Shown here in pieces: positions 1-13,440 of a stretch of DNA of 64,000 nt. Made by a program: the position numbers and the translations under genes. Location of the stretch: positions 6,160 to 70,159 of IMG/VR virus record IMGVR_UViG_3300027743_000027; one strand, given 5' to 3'. Origin of the DNA: a virus. The notes under the pieces are model-generated. The model was not told the DNA's origin. It worked only from the letters and a program-made list of their open reading frames with translations, and ran no database searches. Each line of letters opens with the position of its first letter. The first letter of the stretch is position 1.

Positions 1-3000
1 CAGATCAAGCCGCTGCTCGACGTCGAGATCGCGTCGGTCGCAGGCGCCAGCGGCGGGCCACTCCTGGGCGGCCACGCCAAGGGCGACAAGGTGCTGATCG
101 ACGTCAAAGGCACCGAGGTCATCGCCACCGTCGTGGGCGAGCACGCCACCAAGGGCGTGCTGACGCTCCTCATCGACCCGGGCCAGGGCCTGGCGTCGAT
201 CAAGGTCTGGCGCGCCCCGAGCAAGGTCAAGGCCTACGGCGGGCCGCCGACGCCTGCCATTCCGCTCACGCCCGTGGCGCCGAACCCGCTGGTCTCGCCG
301 TTCGGCGGCCTGGACGTCGGCCACGTGGTCTACGCGACCGCGGGGCAGCACCTGGGCAAGGTCGGCATCGTCCAGGCCACCAAGGCCGCCAACGGCACGC
401 TGCAGGTCTTCTGGGAGGACGGCACGAGCAACTGGGTGGTCCACCAGAACCTCCAGGCAACGCCTGCGCCGACGATCACGCCGACCGTTGGCCAGCAGGT
501 CAAGCTGAACATGCCCGAGCAGGCGCTGCTGCACACCCAGCTTGGCACGATCACGCACATCGACTCGAACGATCTGGTCACGGTCGAGGTAACGATCAAC
601 AACCAGGCCTTCGACTTCACGCTCGAGCCGACCAGCGTGTGGAAGCTCGAGGCGCCCGCGGCGGTCATCGCCGTGCCGCCACCCGTGCCGCCGCACGGCC
701 TGCCAGCGGGCTACCAGACCTCACCCGCCGAGCCCGTGATGGGCGGCAAGGTGCTGGTCACCGCGCAGGGCCCGAAGTTCGGCCAGGCCGGCACGGTCGA
801 CTTCGTCGGCGGCGTGGGCGTCCACATCAAGTTCGACCAGGGCGGCGGCGACATGCTGCTCAAGGCGAATATCACCGTCATCGAGCCCGTGACGGCGCCG
901 CCAACGCCGAGTGCGCCCGGGGCGCTGCCGACCATCGGCTACTTCGATGCACCTGGCGCGCCCAACCACGGCAAGCCCGTGGCCTCGCTCGACGCCGCAT
1001 CGGGCGCCATGCAGTACACCGACGGCACCTGGGCCTACGGCATCGACCCGGCCTGGGTGGTGCCGACGCCACCGCCGGGCAGCCTGCACGCGCCGACGAC
1101 GCCACCCGCGGCGCCCGCGCCTGTCCAGGCCGCGACACCAGCGTGGCAACCCAAGGTGGGCGACGCCGTCACGATCAACGACATCTTCAACCCACACCAC
1201 GGCGCGCAGGGCGTCCTCGACCTCGAGACGCCGAGCTTCTGGGTGATCAAGCTGCCGACCACGACGGTGGTCATGAGCAAGCCCGACCTGCTGACCAAGA
1301 CGCTGCCGCAGGGCGCGCCAGCCGCGCCGACGCAGACGCAGACGGTCGCCGCGCCCGCGCAGCAGGTGCCGCAACTCGGCAACATCAACCACCTCTACAC
1401 GGGCCACTTCGTTACCATCCACGACCCTGGCGGGGCACTGCACGGCCAGTCCTTCGAACTGGCCGAGGACGTCGACCTGATCTCGGCGCAGGGCGACATC
1501 CCGCTGTGGGAAGACGCCACGCACCAGGGCGTGATCTACCTGCCCAAGCAGAAGGCCTACGACCCGACGCTGCCATTAATCGACCTGCAGGCGCTGGCTC
1601 GCCCCGAGGCGACGCTGCAGGATCTGATCGTGGGCGACCAGGCGGTCGACACACACACGGGCGACACGGTCTACCTGGGCGAGGTGCCGCACTGGTCGCT
1701 GAGTGGCGGGCTCATCGTCTACAAGTCCAAGGCCGACTTCGACGCGGGCATCAATCCGATCACGCTGCCCGTGGCGGACCTCGACCCGGTGCCGGGCATG
1801 CTGATCCACGCCGAGACGCCGCTGCACCAGCTAGCCAAGGGCGACAAGGCCATCGTCAACGACCCGACCTCGAACTGGCATGGCAAAGAGGTCTACCTCG
1901 AGATGGGCGCGCTGGGCATGTACGGCACGAGCACCATCCCCGTCACCGATGCCAGCGGCGCCATGACGACGCTCAAGCTGAACCAACTGACGACGACCTG
2001 GCAGATGACGGCGACCTCGAGCCCGGGTCACCTGGCGCCGCCGCCCGCGTCCGCGACAGGCGGGCCAGTCAAGGATCTGCACGCGCACACGGCGGGCGAT
2101 CTGGTGATGATCAAGCCGGGCATCGGCATCCAAGACGGCGGCACGGTGGTCGAACTGGTCGACTCGCTGGTCGGCCTGCAGCCGCACGATCTCGTCACCG
2201 TCAAGTACGCCAACGGCACCACGAACACCCTCGAGGTCAGCGAACTGAAGGCGCTGCCGCCCAGCGGCGCGACCATCGGCCAGCAGTTCGAGTCAAAGGA
2301 CGTCAAGACCCTCCAGGCAGGCGACAAGGTCATCGTCAAGAGCGGCCACGCCGCGGGCCAGGAGATGACCGTCACCCAGCCCTACGACCCGGCCAGCGAC
2401 CTGCTCGAGGTCAAGGACGCCAGCGGCGGGCTCGAGGACTTCTACCCCGACGAGCTTCTGGTCCACCCGGACTCGCAACTGGGCCTCAAGGCCGCACCGC
2501 TGCCCAAGAAGCTCGAGGACATGCAGGCGGGCGACACGGTCATCGTCAACTCACCGGGCGATCCCTACCACGGCCAGCCCGTGACGCTGATGCACGACCT
2601 GTACGGCTACAAGGCGACCGACTTCATCGACCTGACGACGGCCACGGGCGGCTACCTGAGCTACTACCTGCAGAACCTGGCCGTGCCGCGCCCCGCACCA
2701 CCACCTGTGGTCCAGGCCGCCACTGCCGCGCCTGTCGGCAGCGTCGATGTGACACAGAAGGGCACCAAGGTCACCACCGACTACAAGGGCGCCACGGTCA
2801 CGGGCACCGTCCAGTCCTACAACGCGGGCAAAAAGGTGCTGGTGATCAAACCAGATGGGCCTGTGCCTGGTTTGACAGCCAAGACGTTCACCAAGAGCCC
2901 TGGCAAAGTCCAGGCGCTGGTCACGCCCGCGCCCGCGGCCGCCGCGCCGCCCGCACCGCCGCCGCCTGTGCAGACGCAGACGCCGCCCGCGGCCGCGCTG

Positions 3001-6000
3001 CACCCCATCGACCATCTGGTGGCGGGCGATGCCATCGTCATCAACTCGCCGGGCAGCATCTACCACGGCCAGACGGGCAAGCTGATGAACCCGAGCGTGG
3101 CGCAGACCACCAGCGGCTTCCTCGTGGTCGAGATCGGCGGCTCGAGCAAGACCTTCCTGAAGGCCGACCTGGCCTCACCCACGCCACCACCACCGCCATC
3201 GCCGCAGCAGGTCGCGCTGGATGCCATGACGCAGGGCGCGACGGTCATCATCAACGCGCCCGGCAGCGTCAACCACGGCTACGAGGCGCTGCTGCTCGAG
3301 GCGACGATGCCGACCAATGCGGCCGACATGGTCAACCTGCACATGCTGGCGGGGCCGCAAGCGGGCCAGGACGTCGTCTACTTCAAGACGACGCTGGTCG
3401 CGCCCGGGACACCCATCGCGCCAACCGCGCCTGTGCCAGCGCCGCCCGCGGCGGCTGCGGGCCCGGTCATGACCAAGACGACCAAGGGCGCCATCGTCAC
3501 CACCGAGTACCAGGGCACGCCCGTGACGGCGATGGTCAAGAGCTTCAACGCGGGCAAGAACGTGGTCATGCTGAAGCCTGTCACGCCCGGCCTGCCAGGT
3601 GTACCAGCACAGTTTCAGAAGTCGCCCAGCAAGGTCACGCTGGTGCCGCAGCCAGGCGTCAGCGCACCTGCCACACCCGCGGTGCCTGTGGTCACCACGC
3701 CGCCGCCAGTGGCCGCCCCGGCGCCTGCCGCGACGCCGACGCTGCCACCTGGCCTGACGGCCACGCAAGGCAAGCCCGCGACGTCGCCGTCGACCATGCA
3801 GGCGACGCATCAGGTGGTCGGCGGCGGCCACACCAAGGCGATCTACAAGGACGCCACCGACAACTCGACGTGGATGTTCAAGCCCGATCCGAACGCGGCG
3901 CGAGCCGAGCAGGCGGGCTACAACGTCCAGGCGCTGCTCGGGATCGCCACACCCGAGACGCACGTCATCACCCACAACGGCCAGGTCGGCAGCTTCCAGA
4001 AGTTCCACCCGGGCATCAAGGGCGAGGTCGCGCTGCACGCGGTCAAGAGCCTGACCGACGCCCAGCGCGCCCAGCTACAGCAGCATCAGGTCGTTGACTG
4101 GCTGATCAGCCAGCACGACTCCAACGAGGGCGCGATGCTGATCGGCGCCAACGACGAGATCCTGGCGGTCGACAAGGGCCAGGCCTTCAAGTTCCTGCTG
4201 ACACCCGGCGAGAAGCTGCACTGGACCTACAAGCCGAACCCCAACCAACTGGTCTACCAGCCGCTCTTCGAGGGCTACATCGGCAACAAGTTCGCGCTGC
4301 AGCGGAGTGCCATCGAGCCGATCCTGCAGAAGATCGAGGCGCTCGACGATCAGGTCTTCAAGGACGCCATCAAGCCCTACGTCGACCACGCCGTGCAGCA
4401 GGGCCTGGCGCCGAACGAAGCGGCCATCTACGACAAGCTGCTCAAGCGCAAGCACTCGATCCGCGCCGACTTCGACAAGCTGTACGACCAGGCCGACCAG
4501 CAAGCGGGCCGCTCGAGCGGGCCCTCGCTCAGGCAGGCGGCACCCGCGGTGCCCGCGCCGCCTGTGGTCGCCGCCACCTCGAGCGCCGTCTCGACCAATC
4601 AGGTCACGCCCATCACGCCTGTGCTGGCGACCAACGTCCAGCGCGCTGGCACACACGGCAAGGCCGTGCTGGTTGGCGGCCGCGACATCGAAAACGGCAC
4701 CGTCCACGTCTTCCAGATGCCCGTCACGGGCGACGGCACCAAGCTGGTCATCTCGGCCAAGGTCCGCGCAGGTGCCGAGGCCAAGCTGAAGCAGCACCTC
4801 GAGGGCCTGCCTGCCAACAACGCCGCGCCGCCACCCTCGCCCACCTCCACGGCGCCACCCGCGGACCCGGAGTGGACCAACGTCCTGACGGTGCTGAAGC
4901 ACGTCGGCTCGCACACCAAGCCCACGGGCGACCAGCAGGTGACGGGCTCGAAGGTGGCCGAGCTAATCATCCTGGCCAACAACCTCAAGACCAACAACCT
5001 GGGCTGGACGGCGCAGAAGTCGGGCTACTACGCCGACCTGCTCGAGAAGATGACGGGGCACAGCGTCGTCGAACTGGCGGCCAAGACACCCGATGTCCTG
5101 GCGGCCGAGCTACAGACGCTGTGGATCGGCAACACGGCACTGCACGCGGCCGCCTTCGGGCCCTACGTCGCACCACCGCCACCGCCACCTGTGGCGTCCG
5201 CTGCGCCACCGCCGCCACCGCCGCCACCGACAGGCAAGTTCAAGGCGCGCTCCGAGTCACCCAGCTATCTGGTGCGACGGCTGAGCAACGGCGACCTGAT
5301 CACCGACGGCGTGACGCGGACCGACTCATCCTTCCACGGCATCCTGGGGCGGCACGAGTGGTTCATCGACGACCTGGGCGGTGGCATGTCGGCGCAGTAC
5401 ATGCCGCACTACGGCAAGTCGCTGTCGCCCTACGAGTCGAGCGCTCGAGCGCAGAACAACCCGTACAGCCGCATGGGCCGCCTCGAGGTGACGCTCGACA
5501 ACTGGCAGGGCACGCACACCGAGATCGAGGCGGCGCTGCAGAAGCTGAACGAACTGGGCCTCGAGGTCGCGCCCGCCTCGCCGCAGGATGTCGAACTGCT
5601 GTACCTGGCCAATCAGGTCCACGCCATGGGCCTCGAGTCCTCGAGCAAGTACACCTCGCTGCAGGCCAGCATCAACGACACCACGCCCGTCAGCGAGCAG
5701 ATCAGTAAGCACCAGAAGTTCCTGAGCGACCAGCTTGGCACCGACGTCACCAAGCTGCCGACTTACGACCCGGTGGCCAGGTTCGACAACGGCTACCGCA
5801 TCGTGGGCACCAACGGCCACGAGATCGTCCCCGAGGCAGGCAAGCCCTACTTCGAGCGCCTCGACATCAGCGCCCAGGATCTCGCGCAGAAGCTGCCCAA
5901 CCGCGTCCTGACCCACGACTCGACCGCAGGCACCGAGAACTTCCTGAAGGTGCTGCTCGACGGCAACGGCGCGATGGCCAACACCGAGGAGCGCGTCCGC

Positions 6001-6432
6001 CAGGCGCTCTTCGACCCGAGCCAGGGCATGTCGAGCGTCACCGACATGTACACGGGCGGCGCCAGCTACTTCTTCACGCGCCTGGCGCGGACGACGCACG
6101 GCGAGGGCAGCCGCGGGCCGTTCTGGTTCGACATCGACCTGATGCGACGCACTGATATGCTCGCCTACAAAACGGACACCTACGGGCGGTCCGATCCGAA
6201 CACCAAGAAGGGGCGCTACACCGACCTCGACGACTGGCGGACCAAGCAGCACGTCGCAGGCAACAACGAGGTGGTCATCAAGAACGGCTTCCCGCTGCTC
6301 GACTACCTCGTGCGCCTGTCGGCCAAGAACGCCACCGAGCGGAATCGGTTCATCAAGTACTTCAAGGATCGCGGCATCAGCCAGATTCGCGGCAAGCCCA
6401 TCGAGGACATCGTGCAGGTCGGCTTCCCATGA
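1..6432 (+). CDS. Giant polyvalent phage protein, 5'-truncated by the window edge: KOW/SH3-like array, HipA/PI3-PI4-kinase-like domain, putative ART-fold C-terminus; sits in the MuF/minor-head position
   Basis: Frame 1 has no stop from base 1 (QIKPLLDVE...) to TGA 6432. About 15 repeats of 'xGDxVxI(N)xPG...HG' separated by Pro/Ala linkers. Kinase motifs GGGHTK, WMFKP, AEQAG, DWLISQHD, AVDKGQAF. C-terminal LTHDS...YFFTR...NEVVIKNG. Lies upstream of the protease and capsid genes. Confidence 0.8.
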   Translation, partial: QIKPLLDVEIASVAGASGGPLLGGHAKGDKVLIDVKGTEVIATVVGEHATKGVLTLLIDPGQGLASIKVWRAPSKVKAYGGPPTPAIPLTPVAPNPLVSPFGGLDVGHVVYATAGQHLGKVGIVQATKAANGTLQVFWEDGTSNWVVHQNLQATPAPTITPTVGQQVKLNMPEQALLHTQLGTITHIDSNDLVTVEVTINNQAFDFTLEPTSVWKLEAPAAVIAVPPPVPPHGLPAGYQTSPAEPVMGGKVLVTAQGPKFGQAGTVDFVGGVGVHIKFDQGGGDMLLKANITVIEPVTAPPTPSAPGALPTIGYFDAPGAPNHGKPVASLDAASGAMQYTDGTWAYGIDPAWVVPTPPPGSLHAPTTPPAAPAPVQAATPAWQPKVGDAVTINDIFNPHHGAQGVLDLETPSFWVIKLPTTTVVMSKPDLLTKTLPQGAPAAPTQTQTVAAPAQQVPQLGNINHLYTGHFVTIHDPGGALHGQSFELAEDVDLISAQGDIPLWEDATHQGVIYLPKQKAYDPTLPLIDLQALARPEATLQDLIVGDQAVDTHTGDTVYLGEVPHWSLSGGLIVYKSKADFDAGINPITLPVADLDPVPGMLIHAETPLHQLAKGDKAIVNDPTSNWHGKEVYLEMGALGMYGTSTIPVTDASGAMTTLKLNQLTTTWQMTATSSPGHLAPPPASATGGPVKDLHAHTAGDLVMIKPGIGIQDGGTVVELVDSLVGLQPHDLVTVKYANGTTNTLEVSELKALPPSGATIGQQFESKDVKTLQAGDKVIVKSGHAAGQEMTVTQPYDPASDLLEVKDASGGLEDFYPDELLVHPDSQLGLKAAPLPKKLEDMQAGDTVIVNSPGDPYHGQPVTLMHDLYGYKATDFIDLTTATGGYLSYYLQNLAVPRPAPPPVVQAATAAPVGSVDVTQKGTKVTTDYKGATVTGTVQSYNAGKKVLVIKPDGPVPGLTAKTFTKSPGKVQALVTPAPAAAAPPAPPPPVQTQTPPAAALHPIDHLVAGDAIVINSPGSIYHGQTGKLMNPSVAQTTSGFLVVEIGGSSKTFLKADLASPTPPPPPSPQQVALDAMTQGATVIINAPGSVNHGYEALLLEATMPTNAADMVNLHMLAGPQAGQDVVYFKTTLVAPGTPIAPTAPVPAPPAAAAGPVMTKTTKGAIVTTEYQGTPVTAMVKSFNAGKNVVMLKPVTPGLPGVPAQFQKSPSKVTLVPQPGVSAPATPAVPVVTTPPPVAAPAPAATPTLPPGLTATQGKPATSPSTMQATHQVVGGGHTKAIYKDATDNSTWMFKPDPNAARAEQAGYNVQALLGIATPETHVITHNGQVGSFQKFHPGIKGEVALHAVKSLTDAQRAQLQQHQVVDWLISQHDSNEGAMLIGANDEILAVDKGQAFKFLLTPGEKLHWTYKPNPNQLVYQPLFEGYIGNKFALQRSAIEPILQKIEALDDQVFKDAIKPYVDHAVQQGLAPNEAAIYDKLLKRKHSIRADFDKLYDQADQQAGRSSGPSLRQAAPAVPAPPVVAATSSAVSTNQVTPITPVLATNVQRAGTHGKAVLVGGRDIENGTVHVFQMPVTGDGTKLVISAKVRAGAEAKLKQHLEGLPANNAAPPPSPTSTAPPADPEWTNVLTVLKHVGSHTKPTGDQQVTGSKVAELIILANNLKTNNLGWTAQKSGYYADLLEKMTGHSVVELAAKTPDVLAAELQTLWIGNTALHAAAFGPYVAPPPPPPVASAAPPPPPPPPTGKFKARSESPSYLVRRLSNGDLITDGVTRTDSSFHGILGRHEWFIDDLGGGMSAQYMPHYGKSLSPYESSARAQNNPYSRMGRLEVTLDNWQGTHTEIEAALQKLNELGLEVAPASPQDVELLYLANQVHAMGLESSSKYTSLQASINDTTPVSEQISKHQKFLSDQLGTDVTKLPTYDPVARFDNGYRIVGTNGHEIVPEAGKPYFERLDISAQDLAQKLPNRVLTHDSTAGTENFLKVLLDGNGAMANTEERVRQALFDPSQGMSSVTDMYTGGASYFFTRLARTTHGEGSRGPFWFDIDLMRRTDMLAYKTDTYGRSDPNTKKGRYTDLDDWRTKQHVAGNNEVVIKNGFPLLDYLVRLSAKNATERNRFIKYFKDRGISQIRGKPIEDIVQVGFP

Positions 6433-6833
6433 GCGAACGGCCGCCGACCAGCCGCGACCTCATCGAGCGCGCCCGGCGCTACGTCCGCGATGGCGGCGTG
6501 GGCACCGTCACGCTGCAGGACGGCAGCACGCTGCCACCCGTGCCGATCTGCATCCTGTCGCTCGAGCCCGACATGCTGTGGTTCCTGTTCGTCTTCGACG
6601 ATCACCCGCACGGCTCGTATGTTGCGTCGATCACCGAGGGCGACGACGGCGAGGTCAACGTCATCGGCCAGGACGGCGAGGCCAGCCTCGAGATCTACAC
6701 CACCTGGCTGCCCGAGCAGCAGGCGACGCTCAACCGCTGGCGGACCAGCCTGGCGTCGCAGATGGTCTACCTGGGCGTGTCGCCGCTGCCGCCGAACGTC
6801 GTCTACTACGGCGGCCCGCCGCCGCGAGAGTAG
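6429..6833 (+). CDS. Hypothetical protein (134 aa), translationally coupled to the giant protein; candidate immunity protein
   Basis: ATGA start/stop overlap with the giant ORF; codon usage matches neighbouring genes. Confidence 0.65.
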   Translation: MSERPPTSRDLIERARRYVRDGGVGTVTLQDGSTLPPVPICILSLEPDMLWFLFVFDDHPHGSYVASITEGDDGEVNVIGQDGEASLEIYTTWLPEQQATLNRWRTSLASQMVYLGVSPLPPNVVYYGGPPPRE

Positions 6834-6836
6834 CCC

Positions 6837-7163
6837 GTGCCGCTCTATCAGGCGATGGTCGAGAGCTTCCGCAACGACGACGGCGAGTACACCGCGGGCG
6901 TCGCCTGGGTCTTCGATCCGCGCCGCAACCGCATCCAGATCGAGTGGCTGCCGGGCTTCGACGCCCGCGGCCAGGCCGACATCGAGCGCGTCGCGGGGGC
7001 GCGCAACGACGGCTGGCACGATGCCGACATCTGGAACTACTACACGTCGGCGCAGAGCTACAACGGCTACGTCACCATGCGCAGCCTGCCCGAGCCGCTG
7101 ATCGCACCGAGCATGGACGCGGCCGCGTCGGCTGTCTTGCGGCGCATGGCCACCCAGGCCTAG
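6837..7163 (+). CDS. Hypothetical protein (108 aa); candidate second immunity protein
   Basis: GTG start 3 nt after the previous stop; acidic/aromatic globular composition. Confidence 0.6.
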   Translation: MPLYQAMVESFRNDDGEYTAGVAWVFDPRRNRIQIEWLPGFDARGQADIERVAGARNDGWHDADIWNYYTSAQSYNGYVTMRSLPEPLIAPSMDAAASAVLRRMATQA

Positions 7164-7373
7164 ACTGCCCCCGCCGTTATTCGAACGGGCCGCTAGCGCT
7201 ACAGGCACCGTGCGCAGCCCGGGCGGAATCCCGGGGCCACCCAGGCACCGTCGCACCAGGGCCAGAGGCGCCAAGCTGCCGACAGTTTTGTGACGGCATT
7301 GCAACGCCCGGGCTGGCCCGCAACGCTGCCCGGGCGTTTGCCTGTCACCGAGTCGGGTATATACGGTGGCTCG

Positions 7374-7901
7374 ATGCTCAAACGAGTCGCGGTCATTTCT
7401 CTGCTGATGACCACATTCGCCACAGCAGCGCACGCCGAGATGCTGAGCCCGGGCGAGCCCTGGGAACTCGACGCGCCAGGCACCCTGATCGCAGCAGACG
7501 TCGAGGAACTGGCCAACGAGGTGGGCCTCGAGCCGCCACTCCTGCAAGGCGCGGTGAACACGGTCAAGGCTTCACCACGCGCCTACCTCCAGCATGAAGG
7601 GCTGCTCGAGCCGCCCAAGCCTGCCGCAGCCGCCGCGCCAGCCGGGCCACCACCCGGTATCTGGGACACTCTCGCCAACTGCGAATCGAGCGGCAACTGG
7701 GCGATCTCGACTGGCAATGGCTTCTATGGCGGACTGCAGTTCACGCTCAGCACCTGGCAGAGCTACGGCGGCGTCGGGATGCCCAATCACGCCAGCCGGG
7801 CGACCCAGATCGCCGTGGCGCAGCGGACGCAACGGGCCGCGGGCTGGTGTCAATGGCCTGCCTGTGCGGTGCGGCTGGGCCTGGCCCGGCGCTGCCCATG
7901 A
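7374..7901 (+). CDS. rpf: Secreted resuscitation-promoting factor (Rpf)-type lytic transglycosylase
   Basis: Signal peptide MLKRVAVISLLMTTFATAAHA|E; canonical Rpf domain WDTLANCESSGNWAISTGNGFYGGLQFTLSTWQSYGG...QIAVA...WPAC. Confidence 0.9.
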   Translation: MLKRVAVISLLMTTFATAAHAEMLSPGEPWELDAPGTLIAADVEELANEVGLEPPLLQGAVNTVKASPRAYLQHEGLLEPPKPAAAAAPAGPPPGIWDTLANCESSGNWAISTGNGFYGGLQFTLSTWQSYGGVGMPNHASRATQIAVAQRTQRAAGWCQWPACAVRLGLARRCP

Positions 7902-7941
7902 GCCATGAGCCAGGAGGCACGGTTGCTGCGACGGTGAGGAG

Positions 7942-8019
7942 ATGCCACGCATTCTGAAGTGCCGCAGGTGCGGCGAGCAGTACGTCGAGGGCAAGCCACA
8001 TCACTGTGAGCCTGGCTAG
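7942..8019 (+). CDS. 25-aa zinc-finger-like microprotein MPRILKCRRCGEQYVEGKPHHCEPG
   Basis: GAGGAG directly upstream; CxxC...HxC; stop abuts the next GTG at 8020; too short for the ORF track. Confidence 0.5.
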   Translation: MPRILKCRRCGEQYVEGKPHHCEPG

Positions 8020-8202
8020 GTGCGGCTCAAGATCATCAGCGATGGCACGAGCGCGGGCACGCGCATCGAAAACGAGCAGGGCGAAGACCTGACGCCGCAC
8101 GTGCGAGCGATCCGCTGGACCATCGAGGCCGGGCGCAACCCGCAACTCGAGGTCACCCTGGCGCGGCTCGAGGCTGACGTCGAACTCGACCTGAACGTCT
8201 AG
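8020..8202 (+). CDS. Hypothetical protein (60 aa)
   Basis: Typical codon usage; abuts the upstream micro-ORF. Confidence 0.6.
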   Translation: MRLKIISDGTSAGTRIENEQGEDLTPHVRAIRWTIEAGRNPQLEVTLARLEADVELDLNV

Positions 8203-8259
8203 GTGGTCGCCAACCCGGCCATCTGATACGTTGGCCCGGAGCAGGCTGTGGGGTGAGCG

Positions 8260-9297
8260 ATGCGTGAACGCATGACGGGCCTCGCCCACAGCCTGCGCTC
8301 GGGGCCACTGTTCCATGTCATCGGCGGTGCGCTGGCGGGCCTGCTGGTGATGCTGCTGCTGCTGGCGTGGACGACCGACGAGCGGCAGGCCATCGGCCAG
8401 GCGGTGCGCGAGACGACCACGACGGCCGTCACAGCGGTGGCCGACGCCGCGGGCAACGTCGTCGAGCAGATCACCGAGCGCGAGTCGCTCATCGTCGAGG
8501 GGCCGCCGACGCTCATCCAGCCCCGGCCGACCGAGTTTGTGCTGCCGACGCCCGAGGTCGGCATGACGGCGGTGCCAACGGTGCCAACCGTGCCACCCGA
8601 GGAGTCGGCGCTGGTGATCGCCCGGCCCGCCTCGATCTTCAATGTGGCGCCGCCGCCGACGCTGGCGCCTGTGATCGGCCCGCAGGCGGTCATCGTGCCG
8701 CCGACGCCTGTGCCTGAGCCAGCGCCGCCATCCGAACCCGAGCCCGAGCCGACCGCCGAGCCCGTGGCCGAGGTGCCGCTCGAGCCTGCTACCGCACCTG
8801 CGGTCGCTGCCGCGCCGCCTGTGCCTGTCGTGCCCGCGGCGCCTGTCGCGGCGGCCGCCGTCGCGCCTGCACCGCCGCCATTGCCGACGTGGACGCCCAC
8901 GCCACGACCGCGCTCGAGTGGCGGCGGCTCGACCTCGAGCAGCGCTGCCGAACCGACGGCCACGGCCGAGCCCGAGCCGACCGAGACGCCAAAGCCGCCT
9001 GCGGTGGTGCCCACGAGCGCGCCCGCGCCACTGCCGCCCACTGCTGCACCACCAGTCGCCACCAGCACACCACTGCCGCCCACGGCCGTCCCAGCGCCAC
9101 CGACGAACACGCCACGGCCAGGCCCGCCAGCGACCAACACGCCGAGGCCACCGCAGGCGACCAACACGCCACGGCCAACGCAGCCGCCGCCTGTCGAGGT
9201 TGGACGGCCAGGCCCGAAGCCGACCAAGGAGCCCAAACCGACCAAGGAGCCCAAGCCGACACCACCGCCCAAGCCGACTCGCCCACCACGTGCTTGA
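8260..9297 (+). CDS. Membrane-anchored Pro/Thr/Ala-rich surface protein
   Basis: N-terminal TM segment (VIGGALAGLLVMLLLLAW), then PT-rich tract with TNTPRP x3 and KPTKEP repeats. Confidence 0.75.
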   Translation: MRERMTGLAHSLRSGPLFHVIGGALAGLLVMLLLLAWTTDERQAIGQAVRETTTTAVTAVADAAGNVVEQITERESLIVEGPPTLIQPRPTEFVLPTPEVGMTAVPTVPTVPPEESALVIARPASIFNVAPPPTLAPVIGPQAVIVPPTPVPEPAPPSEPEPEPTAEPVAEVPLEPATAPAVAAAPPVPVVPAAPVAAAAVAPAPPPLPTWTPTPRPRSSGGGSTSSSAAEPTATAEPEPTETPKPPAVVPTSAPAPLPPTAAPPVATSTPLPPTAVPAPPTNTPRPGPPATNTPRPPQATNTPRPTQPPPVEVGRPGPKPTKEPKPTKEPKPTPPPKPTRPPRA

Positions 9298-10289: not shown

Positions 10290-11927
10290 GTGCTGCTGCG
10301 CATCAACCGCACGCGGGTTTCGACACGGCCCTGGTCTGAGGCCGAGGCGCTCGCGCTGCGTGACCAACTGGCCGACGCCGACGAGGCCATCGCGCACGAG
10401 GTCTACGCCGCCCGGCTGGCCGCAGGCACGCACTGGGGCGCGCACCACGAGATCTCGAGCGACGGTGAGGTCATCCTCAACCGCCAGGGCCTGCAGGCCG
10501 CCACGGCCGCGCTGGGCGACCTGAGCGAGGCCGAGCGCAGCGTCGCCATCCGCCACCTGAGCAAGCACTACGTCGAGCACGACCTGCCGCTGCCCGACGG
10601 CTTTGTGGCTCGAGCGGGTGAGATGCACGTCCTGGCAGGCGCGGTGGGCGAGATGGCGCCGAGCGACATCCCCCTCTCGAGCGCCTTCACCGAGGCCGAG
10701 CGTCAGCACCTGCTGAAGGGCGACGACGACCCGATGGAGGTGGTCATCGAGGTCGCGCCAGGCAAGAGCAGCCGGGGCTGGAACTACACGCCCGCGGCGC
10801 TGCAGAAGATGGTCACGCACGTCCAGACCAAGACGCTGGCGGGCATCAAGGGCCACCAGCGCGACGAGGACGTCGCCAGCCAGTTCGTCGACCCGGCCAC
10901 GCACTGGATCGGCGCCCTGTGGCAGAACGACAAGGCCTACTTCCGAGGCGTTATCGACAAGACCGCCCCGGATCTGAAGCGCTGGATTCGAGCCAAGCGC
11001 ATTACGCAGCCCAGCATCTTCACGCGGCCCGTGCTGTCACGCGTCGGCGGTGAGACGCAGGTGGTCGACCTCGAGCCGCTGGGGATCGACTGGGCGCCAC
11101 TGGATCGAGCCGGGATGCCCTCATCCAGAGTGGTCGCCTGGGGCGAGATGGATGCCATCGGCGGCGAGCCGTTCGAAAGTCGGGCGCCGCTCGACGACGA
11201 CCAGATCACAACTACAGGGAGCGGTCATATGACAACCGTCCGAGAAGCGCTCGACGCGCTGCGTGAACACGGCGCACCCGCCAGCCAGGTGCTGCAGGCG
11301 ATGAACTGGCGCGCCAACGATGTGCTGCCCGGGCTGCTGGCCACTGACCGTCGTGGCGTGGCCGAGGCCCTCGACCAGGCGACCCTGCAGCACGTGGCCG
11401 CGGGCGAGATGGCCAAGGCGCACCGCCCGCAGGACTTGCTGGCGGCCATGAACCTCGACCTGGCCACCGTGGCGCCGCTGATCGACGCGGCGCAGTGGCA
11501 GCGGCTGCAGGCGGCCGAGACGGCCGTGGGCGAGATGCGCAGCGCGCTGGGCCTGGCCGAGACGGCCGATGCGGCGGCGGTCCGCACGCGGGTGACCGAC
11601 CTCCAGACGGCCGTCGCCACGACCTCGCAGCAGGCGCTGCGCTCGAGTGTCGAAGCGATTGTCGCCCGTGGCGAGATGGCGGTGCCCACGGCGGTCCGCC
11701 CGCTGGTCACCAGCACGGCGCTGCTCGAGCTACAGCCAGGCGCCGACGAGACCGCGATCAAGAGCGCCATCACCAAGGCCAAGGGCGTGCCCGAGATCAA
11801 GCCGATCCTCGAGGCCAGCCTGGGCAGCGCGCATATCCGCCCGACCGCGACCGGGTCCGCGGGTGAGATGCACAACGGCGCCAGCCGCGAGCCCGTGGGC
11901 TTGCCGACGCGCCGACGGTCGATCTGA
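10290..11927 (+). CDS. Prohead protease/scaffold fusion; probable nested scaffold start at ATG 11229
   Basis: Precedes decoration and capsid genes; protease-like core (KSSRGWNY..., GIKGHQ, HWIGA, QPSIF, GIDWAPLDRAGM); helical Ala-rich C-terminal half; in-frame ATG 11229 with upstream AGGGAG. Confidence 0.75.
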   Translation: MLLRINRTRVSTRPWSEAEALALRDQLADADEAIAHEVYAARLAAGTHWGAHHEISSDGEVILNRQGLQAATAALGDLSEAERSVAIRHLSKHYVEHDLPLPDGFVARAGEMHVLAGAVGEMAPSDIPLSSAFTEAERQHLLKGDDDPMEVVIEVAPGKSSRGWNYTPAALQKMVTHVQTKTLAGIKGHQRDEDVASQFVDPATHWIGALWQNDKAYFRGVIDKTAPDLKRWIRAKRITQPSIFTRPVLSRVGGETQVVDLEPLGIDWAPLDRAGMPSSRVVAWGEMDAIGGEPFESRAPLDDDQITTTGSGHMTTVREALDALREHGAPASQVLQAMNWRANDVLPGLLATDRRGVAEALDQATLQHVAAGEMAKAHRPQDLLAAMNLDLATVAPLIDAAQWQRLQAAETAVGEMRSALGLAETADAAAVRTRVTDLQTAVATTSQQALRSSVEAIVARGEMAVPTAVRPLVTSTALLELQPGADETAIKSAITKAKGVPEIKPILEASLGSAHIRPTATGSAGEMHNGASREPVGLPTRRRSI

Positions 11928-11956: not shown

Positions 11957-12331
11957 ATGGCAAACACCAATGGCCACAAGATGGCCGATGGCCTGAGCGT
12001 TGACGTGACCGTGCCGAGCGGCACCGTCGTCGCGCAGGGGGAGTTCGTATACATCGACGGTTTCTTCGGCCTGGCCGAGTTCGACGACAAGCCCGTCTCG
12101 ACCGGGGCGGCGGTCATCGCCATCAACATCGAGCAGGGTCAGTACGACACGGATCAGATCACGACGGCTGAGGCCTACGCGGTGGGCGACGTCGTCAACT
12201 TCAACATCACGACCAAGCTGTTCACCAAGGCGGCCGTCTCGGGCACGATCCTCCCGGTGGGCCGCATCACCATCGCCAAGAACGCGGATAACGTCATCGG
12301 CTTCTTGATGCTGCCGCAGCGGCTGGCCTGA
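11957..12331 (+). CDS. Capsid decoration/cement protein (DUF2190-like)
   Basis: Strong RBS AGGAGAGGAGG; 124-aa beta-rich (VDVTVPSG..GEFVYIDGFFGLA...GDVVNF...VGRIT); lies between scaffold and capsid. Confidence 0.75.
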   Translation: MANTNGHKMADGLSVDVTVPSGTVVAQGEFVYIDGFFGLAEFDDKPVSTGAAVIAINIEQGQYDTDQITTAEAYAVGDVVNFNITTKLFTKAAVSGTILPVGRITIAKNADNVIGFLMLPQRLA

Positions 12332-12345
12332 GGGAGGAGTAGACG

Positions 12346-13440
12346 ATGGCTATCCGAATCATTGACGCCCCAACGCTGCGCGCTGAACGGCGTCAGGGCG
12401 AGCGCACCTACACGGCCCAGGCGACCATCTGGGATCAGCCCTTCGAGGTGCCGATCCACATCGCCGCGGGCGAGATGGACACCTACGACCTCAACCGCCC
12501 GGTGCGCGAGTACCTGGCCACGCTCAACGCCCGCCCGGTGGCTGGTGAGATCATCGCCACGCCGCCCAACCTGGCGCAGTTCGTCACCAAGACGGTCGTC
12601 GACCTGAACCTGGGCCGCGAGCAGGTGCCGCTGCTGTACCCGGCGGTCTACACGCGGACGATCACCGACGCCAACCTGACCGAGAACGTCGATGTCGGCG
12701 CGATCATGGCGCGAGCGTCGGTCGTCTTCCTGCAGCACATGGAAGGCGGCGAGGTCCGCTTCGGCACGCGCACGCTCACGCCACGCCAGACGGTGCCGCT
12801 GGTCACCTACGCCGCGGGCTTCGAGTACACCGAGGATCTGGTCGAGTACGACAAGACGTGGGAGATCACGCAACTCAATGAGGCCCTGGGGCGGGCCTAC
12901 AACGCGCTGCTGAACCACATCCACCTCTACCCGATCACCAGCTACACCTACGCGGCCAAGAACCAGACGCCCGCGGACGCGACGGCCAACACCACCTTCC
13001 GCGAGAAGATGCGCGCCACGCTCAAGGCGGGCCTGATCCACGCAGGCAGCGACACGGGCACCGACACGGGCCTGGGCCGCTCGCCCAACGTCCTGCTGGC
13101 GCACTCGAGCCGCCGCTGGGACATCGAGGAGGCGCTGCAGCGCTTCGTGGTCAGCGGCACCGAGTACCCGGCACTGGCAGGCATCGACACGCTGGTCTTC
13201 TACGACGGCTACAGCATCACCGTCGGCGCCCGGAAGTACGTCTATCCCGGCGTGGCGACCAACAAAGCCTACCTCGTGGACACCAGCACCTACCTCATCG
13301 AACTGGTCAAGCACGACCTGCGGACCGACGCGGGCGTGGGCGATCTCAGCCGCCTCATCCAGCAGCAGATCGTGTCTCGCGCCCGCCGAGGCGTCTTCAT
13401 CTCGCCGCCCAACTGCGTCGAGGAAGTCACGCTGCCGTAA
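12346..13440 (+). CDS. Major capsid protein (HK97 fold)
   Basis: RBS GGGAGGAG; 364 aa; EGGEVRFG..YAAGFEYTEDL..LGRAYNALLNHIHL, ends VEEVTLP; position in head cluster. Confidence 0.88.
   Translation: MAIRIIDAPTLRAERRQGERTYTAQATIWDQPFEVPIHIAAGEMDTYDLNRPVREYLATLNARPVAGEIIATPPNLAQFVTKTVVDLNLGREQVPLLYPAVYTRTITDANLTENVDVGAIMARASVVFLQHMEGGEVRFGTRTLTPRQTVPLVTYAAGFEYTEDLVEYDKTWEITQLNEALGRAYNALLNHIHLYPITSYTYAAKNQTPADATANTTFREKMRATLKAGLIHAGSDTGTDTGLGRSPNVLLAHSSRRWDIEEALQRFVVSGTEYPALAGIDTLVFYDGYSITVGARKYVYPGVATNKAYLVDTSTYLIELVKHDLRTDAGVGDLSRLIQQQIVSRARRGVFISPPNCVEEVTLP

Follow-up and report, generated by a model that had tools for sequence, protein, structure and literature searches.

The virus record IMGVR_UViG_3300027743_000027 of IMG/VR encodes a protein of 2,456 amino acids (aa) in which an N-terminal MuF head-morphogenesis domain is followed by a long array of small beta-barrel-sized units and then by a C-terminal module of some 900 residues that joins an atypical kinase fold to an ADP-ribosyltransferase (ART) fold closest to that of DarT. 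The record is linear, 70,159 bases long and 87% complete by CheckV, with a guanine-plus-cytosine (G+C) content of ~68% throughout; the stretch analyzed here (the window) is 64,000 nucleotides (nt) long and spans record bases 6160-70159. The giant protein is probably a MuF protein of an uncultivated high-G+C tailed phage that has been extended into a polyvalent effector acting early in the host. The idea of delivery with the phage DNA is already known, as is the general kind of protein (MuF toxins and polyvalent proteins); the new part appears to be the widespread pairing of a kinase with a DarT-fold ART. The analysis shows how the gene is built, how its domains fold, which residues are conserved, that the module is kept as a unit and how the genes are linked; packaging, ejection, the two enzymatic activities, their substrates, the role of a partner protein and immunity are inferred.

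The gene lies on the + strand in frame 1, which has no stop from window base 1 to the TGA at 6430-6432 (2,143 codons), and its ATG lies 939 nt upstream of the window at record base 5221. A preliminary description of the window had noted a single open reading frame (ORF) of more than 2140 aa, open from base 1, which is true of the window and an underestimate of the full protein. The motifs that it quoted are all found at their places in the giant protein: GGGHTK (aa 1587, window 3820), WMFKP (1604), AEQAG (1615), DWLISQHD (1679) and AVDKGQ (1702) in the kinase block, and LTHDS (aa 2283, window 5908), GGASYFFTR (2332) and NNEVVIKNG (2401, window 6262) in the C-terminal block. A competing frame runs without a stop through 1,364 codons (3-4097), and the ORF list also contains long antisense ORFs; because long open frames are cheap at 68% G+C, length by itself is not evidence for frame 1, which is identified as the coding frame by homology and domain content (the last 896 aa match 1,564 library representatives). 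The two nearest viral contigs (L008 and L009) have giant ORFs of 2,488 and 2,379 codons. The parts of the gene are listed below, with residue n of the giant protein corresponding to window base 3(n-314)+1.

1-6432, + strand: the section of the giant MuF gene that lies within the window (aa 314-2456 and the stop codon)
aa ~13-316, almost entirely upstream of the window, + strand: MuF head-morphogenesis domain (PHROG 1657)
73-3663 (aa 338-1534), + strand: array of ~16 small beta-barrel-sized units on Pro/Ala/Thr-rich linkers (searches with HMMs built from the array itself, linker segmentation; HMM, hidden Markov model)
3784-4506 (aa ~1575-1815), + strand: atypical kinase domain of the PI3/PI4K-HipA-CtkA type (fold match, conservation)
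4618-4800 (aa ~1853-1913), + strand: MID1, a small alpha/beta subdomain that follows the kinase in most relatives (model secondary structure)
4867-5157 (aa ~1936-2032), + strand: MID2, a helical bundle (helices 376-472 of the kinase-region model)
5248-5736, + strand: CB (beta-rich, aa ~2063-2145) and CH (helical, aa ~2152-2225), preceding the ART (C-terminal model)
5860-6429 (aa ~2267-2456), + strand: DarT-fold ART-like domain (VIA-align, conservation)

A widespread kinase-to-ART module

Searched against the protein library, the last 896 aa match 1,564 representatives at E<=1e-3, 946 at <=1e-10 and 202 at <=1e-30, and the matches inspected were the best 150 of the 1,564 by whole-module score. 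Domain HMMs run on 159 retrieved proteins detect the kinase and the DarT-like domain together in 143 and MuF in 81, tallies that are biased to double-domain proteins by the whole-module ranking; three of the 159 instead join MuF and the kinase to a classical exo-toxin ART. In IMG/VR a single peptide pattern matched 252 times, and 249 contigs were confirmed from these matches; loci were counted in 80 of them. The ORF is complete at its 5' end in 62 of the 80 loci, and 55 of these 62 share the order MuF-KIN-MID1-MID2-CB-CH-DART, with six more having the same order without detectable MuF and the last one short. In a bacterial genome collection a degenerate DNA pattern retrieved 94 stretches, of which 83 proved to be genuine members and 55 of these encode the kinase within one ORF with the domain. 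The genomes carry the labels Desulfobacterota, Acidobacteriota, Verrucomicrobiota, Nitrospirota, Hydrogenedentota and others. Relatives are only 25-35% identical.

The module is also found in altered forms. The mycobacteriophage proteins McProf gp54 and Onyinye gp16 carry the same kinase domain with an ADPrib_exo_Tox ART, not a DarT-like one; Pseudanabaena phage Pan1 has MID1-CH-DART at the end of a MuF protein in which the kinase was not detected; and the C-terminal domain occurs as the stand-alone proteins P0034 (305 aa) and P0159 (356 aa). The kinase keeps an ART partner of one type or the other, a hint that the two may be functionally coupled. In P0012-P0014 (1,702-1,777 aa) the kinase is accompanied by a divergent C-terminal domain and an extra C-terminal extension, and since MuF is undetected in them the module seems to be borne by other carriers as well. 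In P0003 (1,492 aa) the MuF domain is split, in its conserved Cys-containing end, by an intein-like insert with a precomputed match to PF14890, which we take to be Intein_splicing. One IMG/VR contig of 133,335 bases (loci L040 and L047) holds two copies of the module ~88 kb apart, an arrangement that may stem from duplication, from a pair of prophages or from misassembly. Among 23 relatives scanned, SAP or Rho_N-type motifs lie between MuF and the module in one member each.

The kinase domain

The preliminary description had proposed a HipA/PI3K-like kinase, and the region does model as a bilobal kinase fold of the PI3/PI4K-HipA type. The AlphaFold2 (AF2) model of aa 1561-2040, built on a shallow alignment of 28 relatives, has a mean predicted local distance difference test score (pLDDT) of 85.1. 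Foldseek places 23 PDB entries at E<=1e-3, the first being CtkA of H. pylori (8.6e-5), followed by actin-fragmin kinase, CK1 and PI3K. The aligner VIA-align ranks PI4KIIalpha at Z 15.6, with a root mean square deviation (rmsd) of 3.8 over 227 aligned residues at 17% identity, and further matches CtkA (Z 14.3), Fam20 (12.6), actin-fragmin kinase (12.4) and HipA (11.4).

Across 151 kinase relatives, Lys1607 is conserved in 149, Asp1686 in 150 and Asp1704 in 150, while Gln1646, Asp1679, Gln1707 and Arg1796 are also near-invariant and residue 1616, the Glu of AEQAG, is Glu or Asp in 136. We propose that Lys1607 is the ATP-binding lysine, that His1685-Asp1686 belong to the catalytic loop and that Asp1704 binds metal, these roles being assigned by motif order rather than by superposition; on this assignment the catalytic set looks complete. 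The family consensus of the catalytic loop is H-D-x-H, with residue 1688 being Asn here and in 20 of 151 relatives and His in 128. The divergence of this loop had raised the possibility of a pseudokinase, a concern that is weakened by the conservation of Lys1607, Asp1686 and Asp1704 in 149-150 of 151 sequences. Family models give weak matches to the domain: NCBIfam TIGR03843 reaches 22.4 bits on the kinase against a cut-off of 172.4, and among the 23 scanned relatives HipA_C matches 12 (best 1.1e-6) and PI3_PI4_kinase four (best 5.1e-5).

The linker subdomains and the C-terminal ART-like domain

The C-terminal block had been suggested, from a His, an aromatic strand and a Glu, to be an ART. 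It does fold as one, with DarT as its nearest structural relative, and the three features fall on conserved positions. The AF2 model of aa 2041-2456, built on a shallow alignment of 23 relatives, has a pLDDT of 82.5 and a predicted template modeling score (pTM) of 0.82. Aligned by VIA-align with 48,161 representative chains, this model has four DarT chains as its top matches, at Z 11.0-11.4 with an rmsd of 3.0-3.2 over 150-158 aligned residues: 8baq_A (Z 11.4, rmsd 3.1, 158 aligned), 7yk3_C (11.1), 7omu (11.0) and 7omv (11.0). Each of these alignments spans residues ~227-416 of the model and almost the entire DarT chain. Other ARTs follow, namely SopF (Z 6.5), Tpt1 (5.9), OspC3 (5.7), CopC (5.3) and CteC (5.1). 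The likeness to DarT surfaced only with this all-against-all aligner: Foldseek of the same model against PDB and BFVD gave nothing at E<=1e-3, with SopF and DarT in its weak list. Neighbors in ESM-Atlas, useful as leads only, are the giant-virus DUF5846 (0.92), OspC (0.91) and DarT clusters (0.86-0.87). An OspC/CopC-type ADP-riboxanase or a SopF-type ART was considered as the identity of this domain and rejected, these folds lying well below DarT (Z 5.3-6.5 vs 11).

Among 149 sequences, Asp2328 and Gly2375 are present in all 149, Ser2324 and Asp2372 in 148, Glu2403 in 147 and Gly2332 in 146, followed by Arg2313 (137), Phe2338 (132) and Arg2340 (128); Tyr2336 is found in 108, with Phe in 13 more. 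We propose His2285, Arg2313, Tyr2336/Phe2338 and Glu2403 as the candidate active site. The order His2285 - Arg2313 - Tyr2336 - Glu2403 fits the DarT layout, Glu2403 begins a strand of the model, and a non-significant hhalign alignment sets Glu2403 on the 'A-E' Glu of DarT and the TGGASYFFTR strand on the DarT aromatic strand. DarT is described as belonging to the H-Y-E class of ARTs; an Arg of its NAD-binding loop (NAD, nicotinamide adenine dinucleotide) is conserved and essential, and its catalytic Glu is E160 in DarT2 and E152 in DarT1 (PMC11543638).

At the sequence level the domain stands apart. Pfam, NCBIfam and PADLOC contain no model for it and no Pfam ART model matches the protein. The kinase and C-terminal pieces searched against PDB sequences, as single sequences and as a profile alike, gave chance-level matches only. 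Because no sequence model recognizes it and the profile comparison with DarT is non-significant, we describe the domain as DarT-like in fold but outside the DarT family.

Between the two enzymatic cores, the structural match lists of the models that contain MID1, MID2, CB and CH were taken up by the kinase and ART cores, and ESM-Atlas returned no usable match for aa ~1840-2261. In support of MID1, many library matches cover module residues ~25-400, and the SopF, OspC3 and CopC alignments (Z 5.3-6.5) run from the helical part into the ART core.

The MuF N-terminus

Residues 13-316 match PHROG 1657 (head morphogenesis) at E 3.6e-58, and 12 further head, MuF or minor-head PHROGs match the N-terminus as well. 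Pfam PF04233 (Phage_Mu_F) has no match in this copy and matches nine of the 23 relatives scanned. The terminase large subunit (L004:1108-2526) and portal (L004:2411-4093) genes lie upstream of the giant gene in the same record. A MuF domain beside the portal and terminase, for which the preliminary description had advised looking upstream, is therefore present and proves to be the N-terminus of the giant protein itself.

The barrel array

Iterated self-HMM searches resolve nine units of type A, with a KOW-like N-terminal motif, and three of type B; about four further barrel-sized segments between Pro/Ala linkers were picked out by eye. The KOW/SH3 naming of the units rests on sub-threshold Pfam matches (SH3_15, 22.1 bits against a cut-off of 24, E 1.9e-4; KOW, 15.7 bits against 22.3, E 0.014; LSM12_LSM, E 0.0028) and on a precomputed KOW match in the relative P0008. 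Tandem Repeats Finder reports only short low-complexity DNA repeats in the giant gene, from which we conclude that the array has diverged at the DNA level.

The array is lineage-specific. It is present in the close relatives P0007, P0008, P0018 and P0019; in P0010 and P0011 MuF is joined almost straight to the kinase, and P0004-P0006 have helical repeats in its place. With ~16 barrels, this copy has the longest spacer among the relatives examined. The repeat array inferred earlier is hence real, as the self-HMM searches attest, but its supposed function as a reader that aims the enzymes is unsupported: as relatives swap the array for other spacers or have none, it would be better seen as a spacer, perhaps one that contacts DNA, than as an aiming device.

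Small genes behind the giant gene

Two small genes follow the module directly.

6429-6833, + strand: ORF134, whose start overlaps the stop of the giant gene (ATGA), translationally coupled
6837-7163, + strand: ORF108, with a GTG start 3 nt after the ORF134 stop

Searched by tblastn against the 80 loci, ORF134 is found only in L008 (47% identity) and L009 (27%), and ORF108 likewise only in L008 (70%) and L009 (38%). Elsewhere among the 80 loci the giant gene is followed by a protein of ~170 aa (c1) in 72 and one of ~115 aa (c2) in 69. An hhalign comparison of the ORF108 trio with c2 gives a Prob of 65% and E 6.1e-5 over 100 columns, against E 0.083-0.48 for the cross-controls, and the joint alignment is colinear with four invariant positions. 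ORF108 is thus probably a distant member of the c2 family, the ~110-117-aa proteins encoded just downstream of the module in other phage lineages. When IMG/VR was searched with c2 alone, 94 relatives were found, and in 80 of the 80 kept a DarT-like ORF ends 390-613 nt upstream. In the c2-bearing phage L013 the portal and capsid fall into PHROGs other than those of the phage studied here, so the small gene seems to travel with the module and not with one head lineage. None of ORF134, ORF108, c1 and c2 has a match in Pfam, PHROG, NCBIfam or PADLOC.

Modeled as a complex with the kinase and C-terminal pieces, ORF108 scored 0.60 (runs of 0.35, 0.61 and 0.60; best control 0.34), a score that by the calibration of the tool is more often wrong than right unless binding is already likely: the mark is reached by 58 of 80 solved complexes and two of 110 mismatched pairs, and the passes at 0.60 or under comprise only seven of the 80 solved complexes and both passing mismatches. 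In the ORF108 runs at least 26% of contacts agree and the partner has a pLDDT of at least 77. These predictions lend weak support to binding of the module by ORF108. The earlier proposal that both small ORFs control the enzymes accordingly divides in two: the ORF108 family is linked to the module, with a weak prediction of binding, and ORF134 has no such family.

Different small genes accompany the mycobacteriophage fusions. McProf gp55 (L005:8192-8560) and Onyinye gp17 (L006:9523-9921) share a short conserved motif and may be a separate partner family; neither these two nor Pan1_16 shows similarity to ORF134, ORF108, c1 or c2. In L013-type phages an 809-aa DNA methyltransferase (L013:10124-12553, PHROG 27806) is encoded directly after the two small genes of the module.

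The head-gene neighborhood

Downstream of the giant gene the order is the two small coupled ORFs, an Rpf-type transglycosylase, a Pro-rich protein and then the protease/scaffold-like, decoration and capsid genes, which bears out the placement of the giant gene upstream of the protease and capsid genes.

10290-11927: protease/scaffold-like gene
11957-12331: head-decoration gene (PHROG 122)
12346-13440: capsid gene, whose product is 34-38% identical to proteins of Bacillus and Clostridioides phages, including one with the annotation major capsid protein

The transglycosylase gene (window 7290-7901) has a 203-aa product that is hydrophobic in an N-terminal segment and contains an Rpf-type domain of the Transglycosylase-like family (Pfam E 3e-28; PHROG 29757), and the order giant gene, ORF134, ORF108, Rpf-like gene is common to L008 and L009. 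The 345-aa ORF at window 8260-9297 is mainly Pro/Ala/Thr-rich, with one hydrophobic N-terminal segment and no family match, and given the G+C content may or may not be a real gene. A simple scan of window 6300-8300 found no promoter-like or terminator-like sites.

The GenBank phage collection contains no close relative of this phage, the capsid being at most 38% identical (to Bacillus phages) and the MuF domain at most 34%. The closest GenBank relatives of the capsid (34-38% identity) belong to low-G+C phages of Bacillus, Weizmannia and Clostridioides, while the phage itself has 68% G+C. As no tyrosine integrase was found in the 87% complete record, there is no sign of the phage being temperate.

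Comparison with known systems

The polymorphic MuF toxins of (temperate) phages, as described by Jamet et al. (2017; PMC5576092), have a MuF N-terminus, a C-terminal toxin and small downstream ORFs, with ARTs a frequent payload; those studied include the EFV toxin of E. faecalis and Bxa with its partners Bsi and BAH (PMC11699363). The giant protein resembles them in its N-terminal MuF domain encoded next to the portal gene, its C-terminal enzymatic extension and the small coupled ORFs (<150 aa) downstream. It differs in its 900-aa two-enzyme payload without Pfam coverage, in its ~1,200-aa barrel array and in that no integrase was found in the record. The word 'kinase' has no occurrence in the main text of PMC5576092.

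Polyvalent proteins (Iyer, Burroughs, Anand, de Souza and Aravind, 2017; PMC5512222) are, like the protein described here, very large phage polypeptides with at least two effector domains encoded among virion genes. ART and kinase are among their listed classes, injection with the DNA has been proposed for them and T4 Alt serves as the model of a head-packaged ART. The domain types appear to differ: the ART of polyvalent proteins is described there as of the H-Y-D Tox-ART-HYD2 or N4 type, whereas here it is DarT-like, and their kinase as a C-terminally truncated Ser/Thr/Tyr-type enzyme in phages of Verrucomicrobia, Chlamydia and Bacteroidetes, whereas here it is PI3/PI4K-HipA-like (PMC5512222). 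'DarT' does not occur in the text of that paper.

The two enzymatic halves have their own comparisons. With the DarT of DarTG the C-terminal domain appears to share a conserved Glu that opens a strand after the substrate loop, as well as the succession of His, Arg and aromatic strand; DarT, however, is a stand-alone host toxin paired with DarG, whereas here the domain is fused to a phage head protein and no DarG macrodomain or NADAR neighbor was found. PI4KIIalpha, CtkA and HipA share with the kinase a common fold and the Lys/Asp/Asp set, the difference being that here the kinase is part of a putative virion protein; across the wide host range of the family a lipid substrate would be unlikely. 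The nearest annotated proteins are McProf gp54 and Onyinye gp16 ('minor capsid and ADP-ribosyltransferase fusion'), which have the same kinase domain (module HMM E 4.2e-65 and 2.6e-56), a C-terminal ART and a small downstream gene, but whose ART is ADPrib_exo_Tox (PF03496) and whose annotation omits the kinase-like middle domain. McProf gp54 directly follows the portal gene and Onyinye gp16 precedes the terminase gene.

The preliminary description regarded the locus as its best candidate for an undescribed system. The kind of system has been described, as MuF toxins (PMC5576092) and polyvalent proteins (PMC5512222), and what appears new is the enzyme pair: literature searches turned up no paper on a PI3/4K-HipA-like kinase joined to a DarT-like ART on a MuF protein; the supplementary architecture tables of PMC5512222 and PMC5576092 could list it.

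Proposed mechanism and alternative explanations

We propose that the MuF domain, as its family suggests, would bring the protein to the portal, inside the capsid, as the head assembles, and that the flexible chain of barrels, ~1,200 residues long, would act as a lineage-specific spacer, possibly in contact with the packaged DNA. The last 900 residues would then form one conserved module of kinase, linker subdomains and DarT-fold ART that most likely exits the capsid with the DNA and works early in the infected cell; head-packaged cargo that leaves with the DNA and modifies the host early has been described, with T4 Alt as the example (PMC5512222, PMC9503650, PMC5576092). In the cell the kinase would phosphorylate host proteins and the ART would transfer ADP-ribose from NAD+ to a host target, which may be nucleic acid, as for DarT, or protein, the outcome being host take-over or counter-defense. 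By analogy with DarT, nucleic acid is a serious candidate for the ART substrate; the fold does not fix the substrate. ORF108, and perhaps ORF134, would be a cognate partner made in the producing cell, either an inhibitor or immunity protein or a packaging chaperone. A more specific version, which we hold to be rather doubtful, makes the kinase and the DarT-fold ART an obligate capsid-delivered machine acting on host DNA or RNA, with the kinase working in the same pathway (for example by blocking adduct removal or repair, or defenses) and ORF108/c2 silencing the machine until it is packaged.

A number of results weigh against the reading of the protein as a head-delivered effector with two active enzymes. 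On the kinase side, HipA_C reaches 17.3 bits on this protein, below its cut-off of 30.5 (E 0.004), and a search of the record with PI3_PI4_kinase gives nothing at E<=10. On the ART side, Pfam DarT (PF14487) has no match anywhere in the record at E<=10, and when the 149 module domains were compared by hhalign with 12-13 genuine DarT sequences, fetched from 14 genomes of actinobacteria and one of Desulfosarcina, the Prob was 1.3-3.5%, at the level of unrelated controls. The candidate His2285 is present in only 108 of 149 sequences, with 24 gaps and 17 other residues, and the DarT residue equivalences come from order, spacing and a non-significant alignment rather than from superposition. Both structural models were built on shallow alignments (23 and 28 rows), and the 159-protein tallies carry their bias to double-domain matches. 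Around the gene, ORF134 matches c1 only at a non-significant hhalign E of 0.046 (cross-controls 0.083-0.48); Phage_integrase has no match in the 87% complete record, a search that covered tyrosine and not serine integrases; and neither Macro nor NADAR has a match there at E<=1, so that the record holds no recognizable ADP-ribose-removing antidote.

The small genes and the MuF domain could be explained in another way, by an interbacterial polymorphic toxin that, whole or as its C-terminal module, is freed when a lysogen lyses and poisons competitors, ORF134 and ORF108 being one immunity protein for each enzyme. Small ORFs follow MuF toxins in 89.4% of 191 cases (PMC5576092), and Bxa, a prophage MuF-type ART, is reported to be antibacterial and to have two immunity proteins (PMC11699363). 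Here too the coupling between the giant gene and its two small neighbors is tight, the c2/ORF108 family always lies behind the module (80/80 c2 loci), members in bacterial chromosomes and metagenome-assembled genomes are consistent with prophages, and the ORF108 complex prediction (0.60 vs a best control of 0.34) offers weak support. We nevertheless judge such a toxin unlikely: no tyrosine integrase is found in the 87% complete record, a cytoplasmic protein of 2,456 aa has no route of entry into a neighboring cell, conservation of ORF134 stops at two close relatives, searches of the record for a hydrolase-type antidote (Macro, NADAR) found none, and a complex score of 0.60 is more often wrong than right unless binding is already likely. 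Inheritance of the enzymes as one 900-aa block might instead reflect an obligate pair on a single target pathway, in which, for example, one enzyme modifies the product of the other or blocks its removal or repair. The fixed KIN-MID1-MID2-CB-CH-DART order in 55 of the 62 complete viral ORFs and the presence of both domains in 143 of the 159 retrieved proteins accord with such a pair, as does the pairing of this kinase with ADPrib_exo_Tox in proteins that lack the DarT-like domain (McProf gp54, Onyinye gp16 and P0015-P0017). Yet polyvalent proteins are described as routinely stringing together unrelated effectors (PMC5512222), Pan1 has MID1-CH-DART on a MuF protein with the kinase undetected, the C-terminal domain also stands alone (P0034, P0159) and the 159-protein sample is biased to double-domain matches, which together make obligate pairing improbable in our view.

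That the module instead modifies the phage itself (its DNA or proteins of its head), either within the producing cell or at ejection, and so protects the genome, would agree with the chemistry of DarT, the closest fold, which modifies DNA bases (PMC11543638), and with the predicted position of the giant protein with the packaged DNA; the SAP or Rho_N-type motifs between MuF and module in one relative each, and the large DNA methyltransferase gene after the two small genes in L013-type phages, also point this way. DarT-type ADP-ribosylation, however, is reported to stop replication and to be used against phage DNA (PMC11543638, PMC11825919), NAD+ and ATP (adenosine triphosphate) are not expected inside a capsid, and the Macro and NADAR searches of the record reveal no reversal enzyme, so we consider protection of the genome very unlikely. 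Finally, the enzyme-like domains could be inactive relics in what is only a large internal head or scaffold protein, in line with the lack of any active-family sequence model that matches the C-terminal domain and with the divergent catalytic loop of the kinase here (Asn at residue 1688, His in 128 of 151 relatives). The residues that would carry out catalysis, Lys1607, Asp1686, Asp1704 and Glu2403, are, however, the most conserved, being retained in 147-150 of 149-151 sequences among relatives that are 25-35% identical, and this makes decay of the enzymes the least credible of the explanations, one to which we attach hardly any weight. The head-delivered effector that acts early in the host remains the reading we prefer.

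Implications

Head-packaged enzymes shape the first minutes of infection and few have been studied, T4 Alt and Bxa being examples. The module described here is very common, with 1,564 library representatives, 249 IMG/VR contigs and members in many bacterial phyla, yet its ART half has no Pfam, NCBIfam or PADLOC model. The small partner gene that travels with it makes the module a test case for toxin-partner relationships. The T7 kinase was recently reported to disarm defenses by phosphorylation (PMC13645617), and if the kinase of the module acts broadly on host proteins it would provide a parallel. Should the ART modify DNA in the manner of DarT, phages would have turned the chemistry of a host defense toxin to offense.

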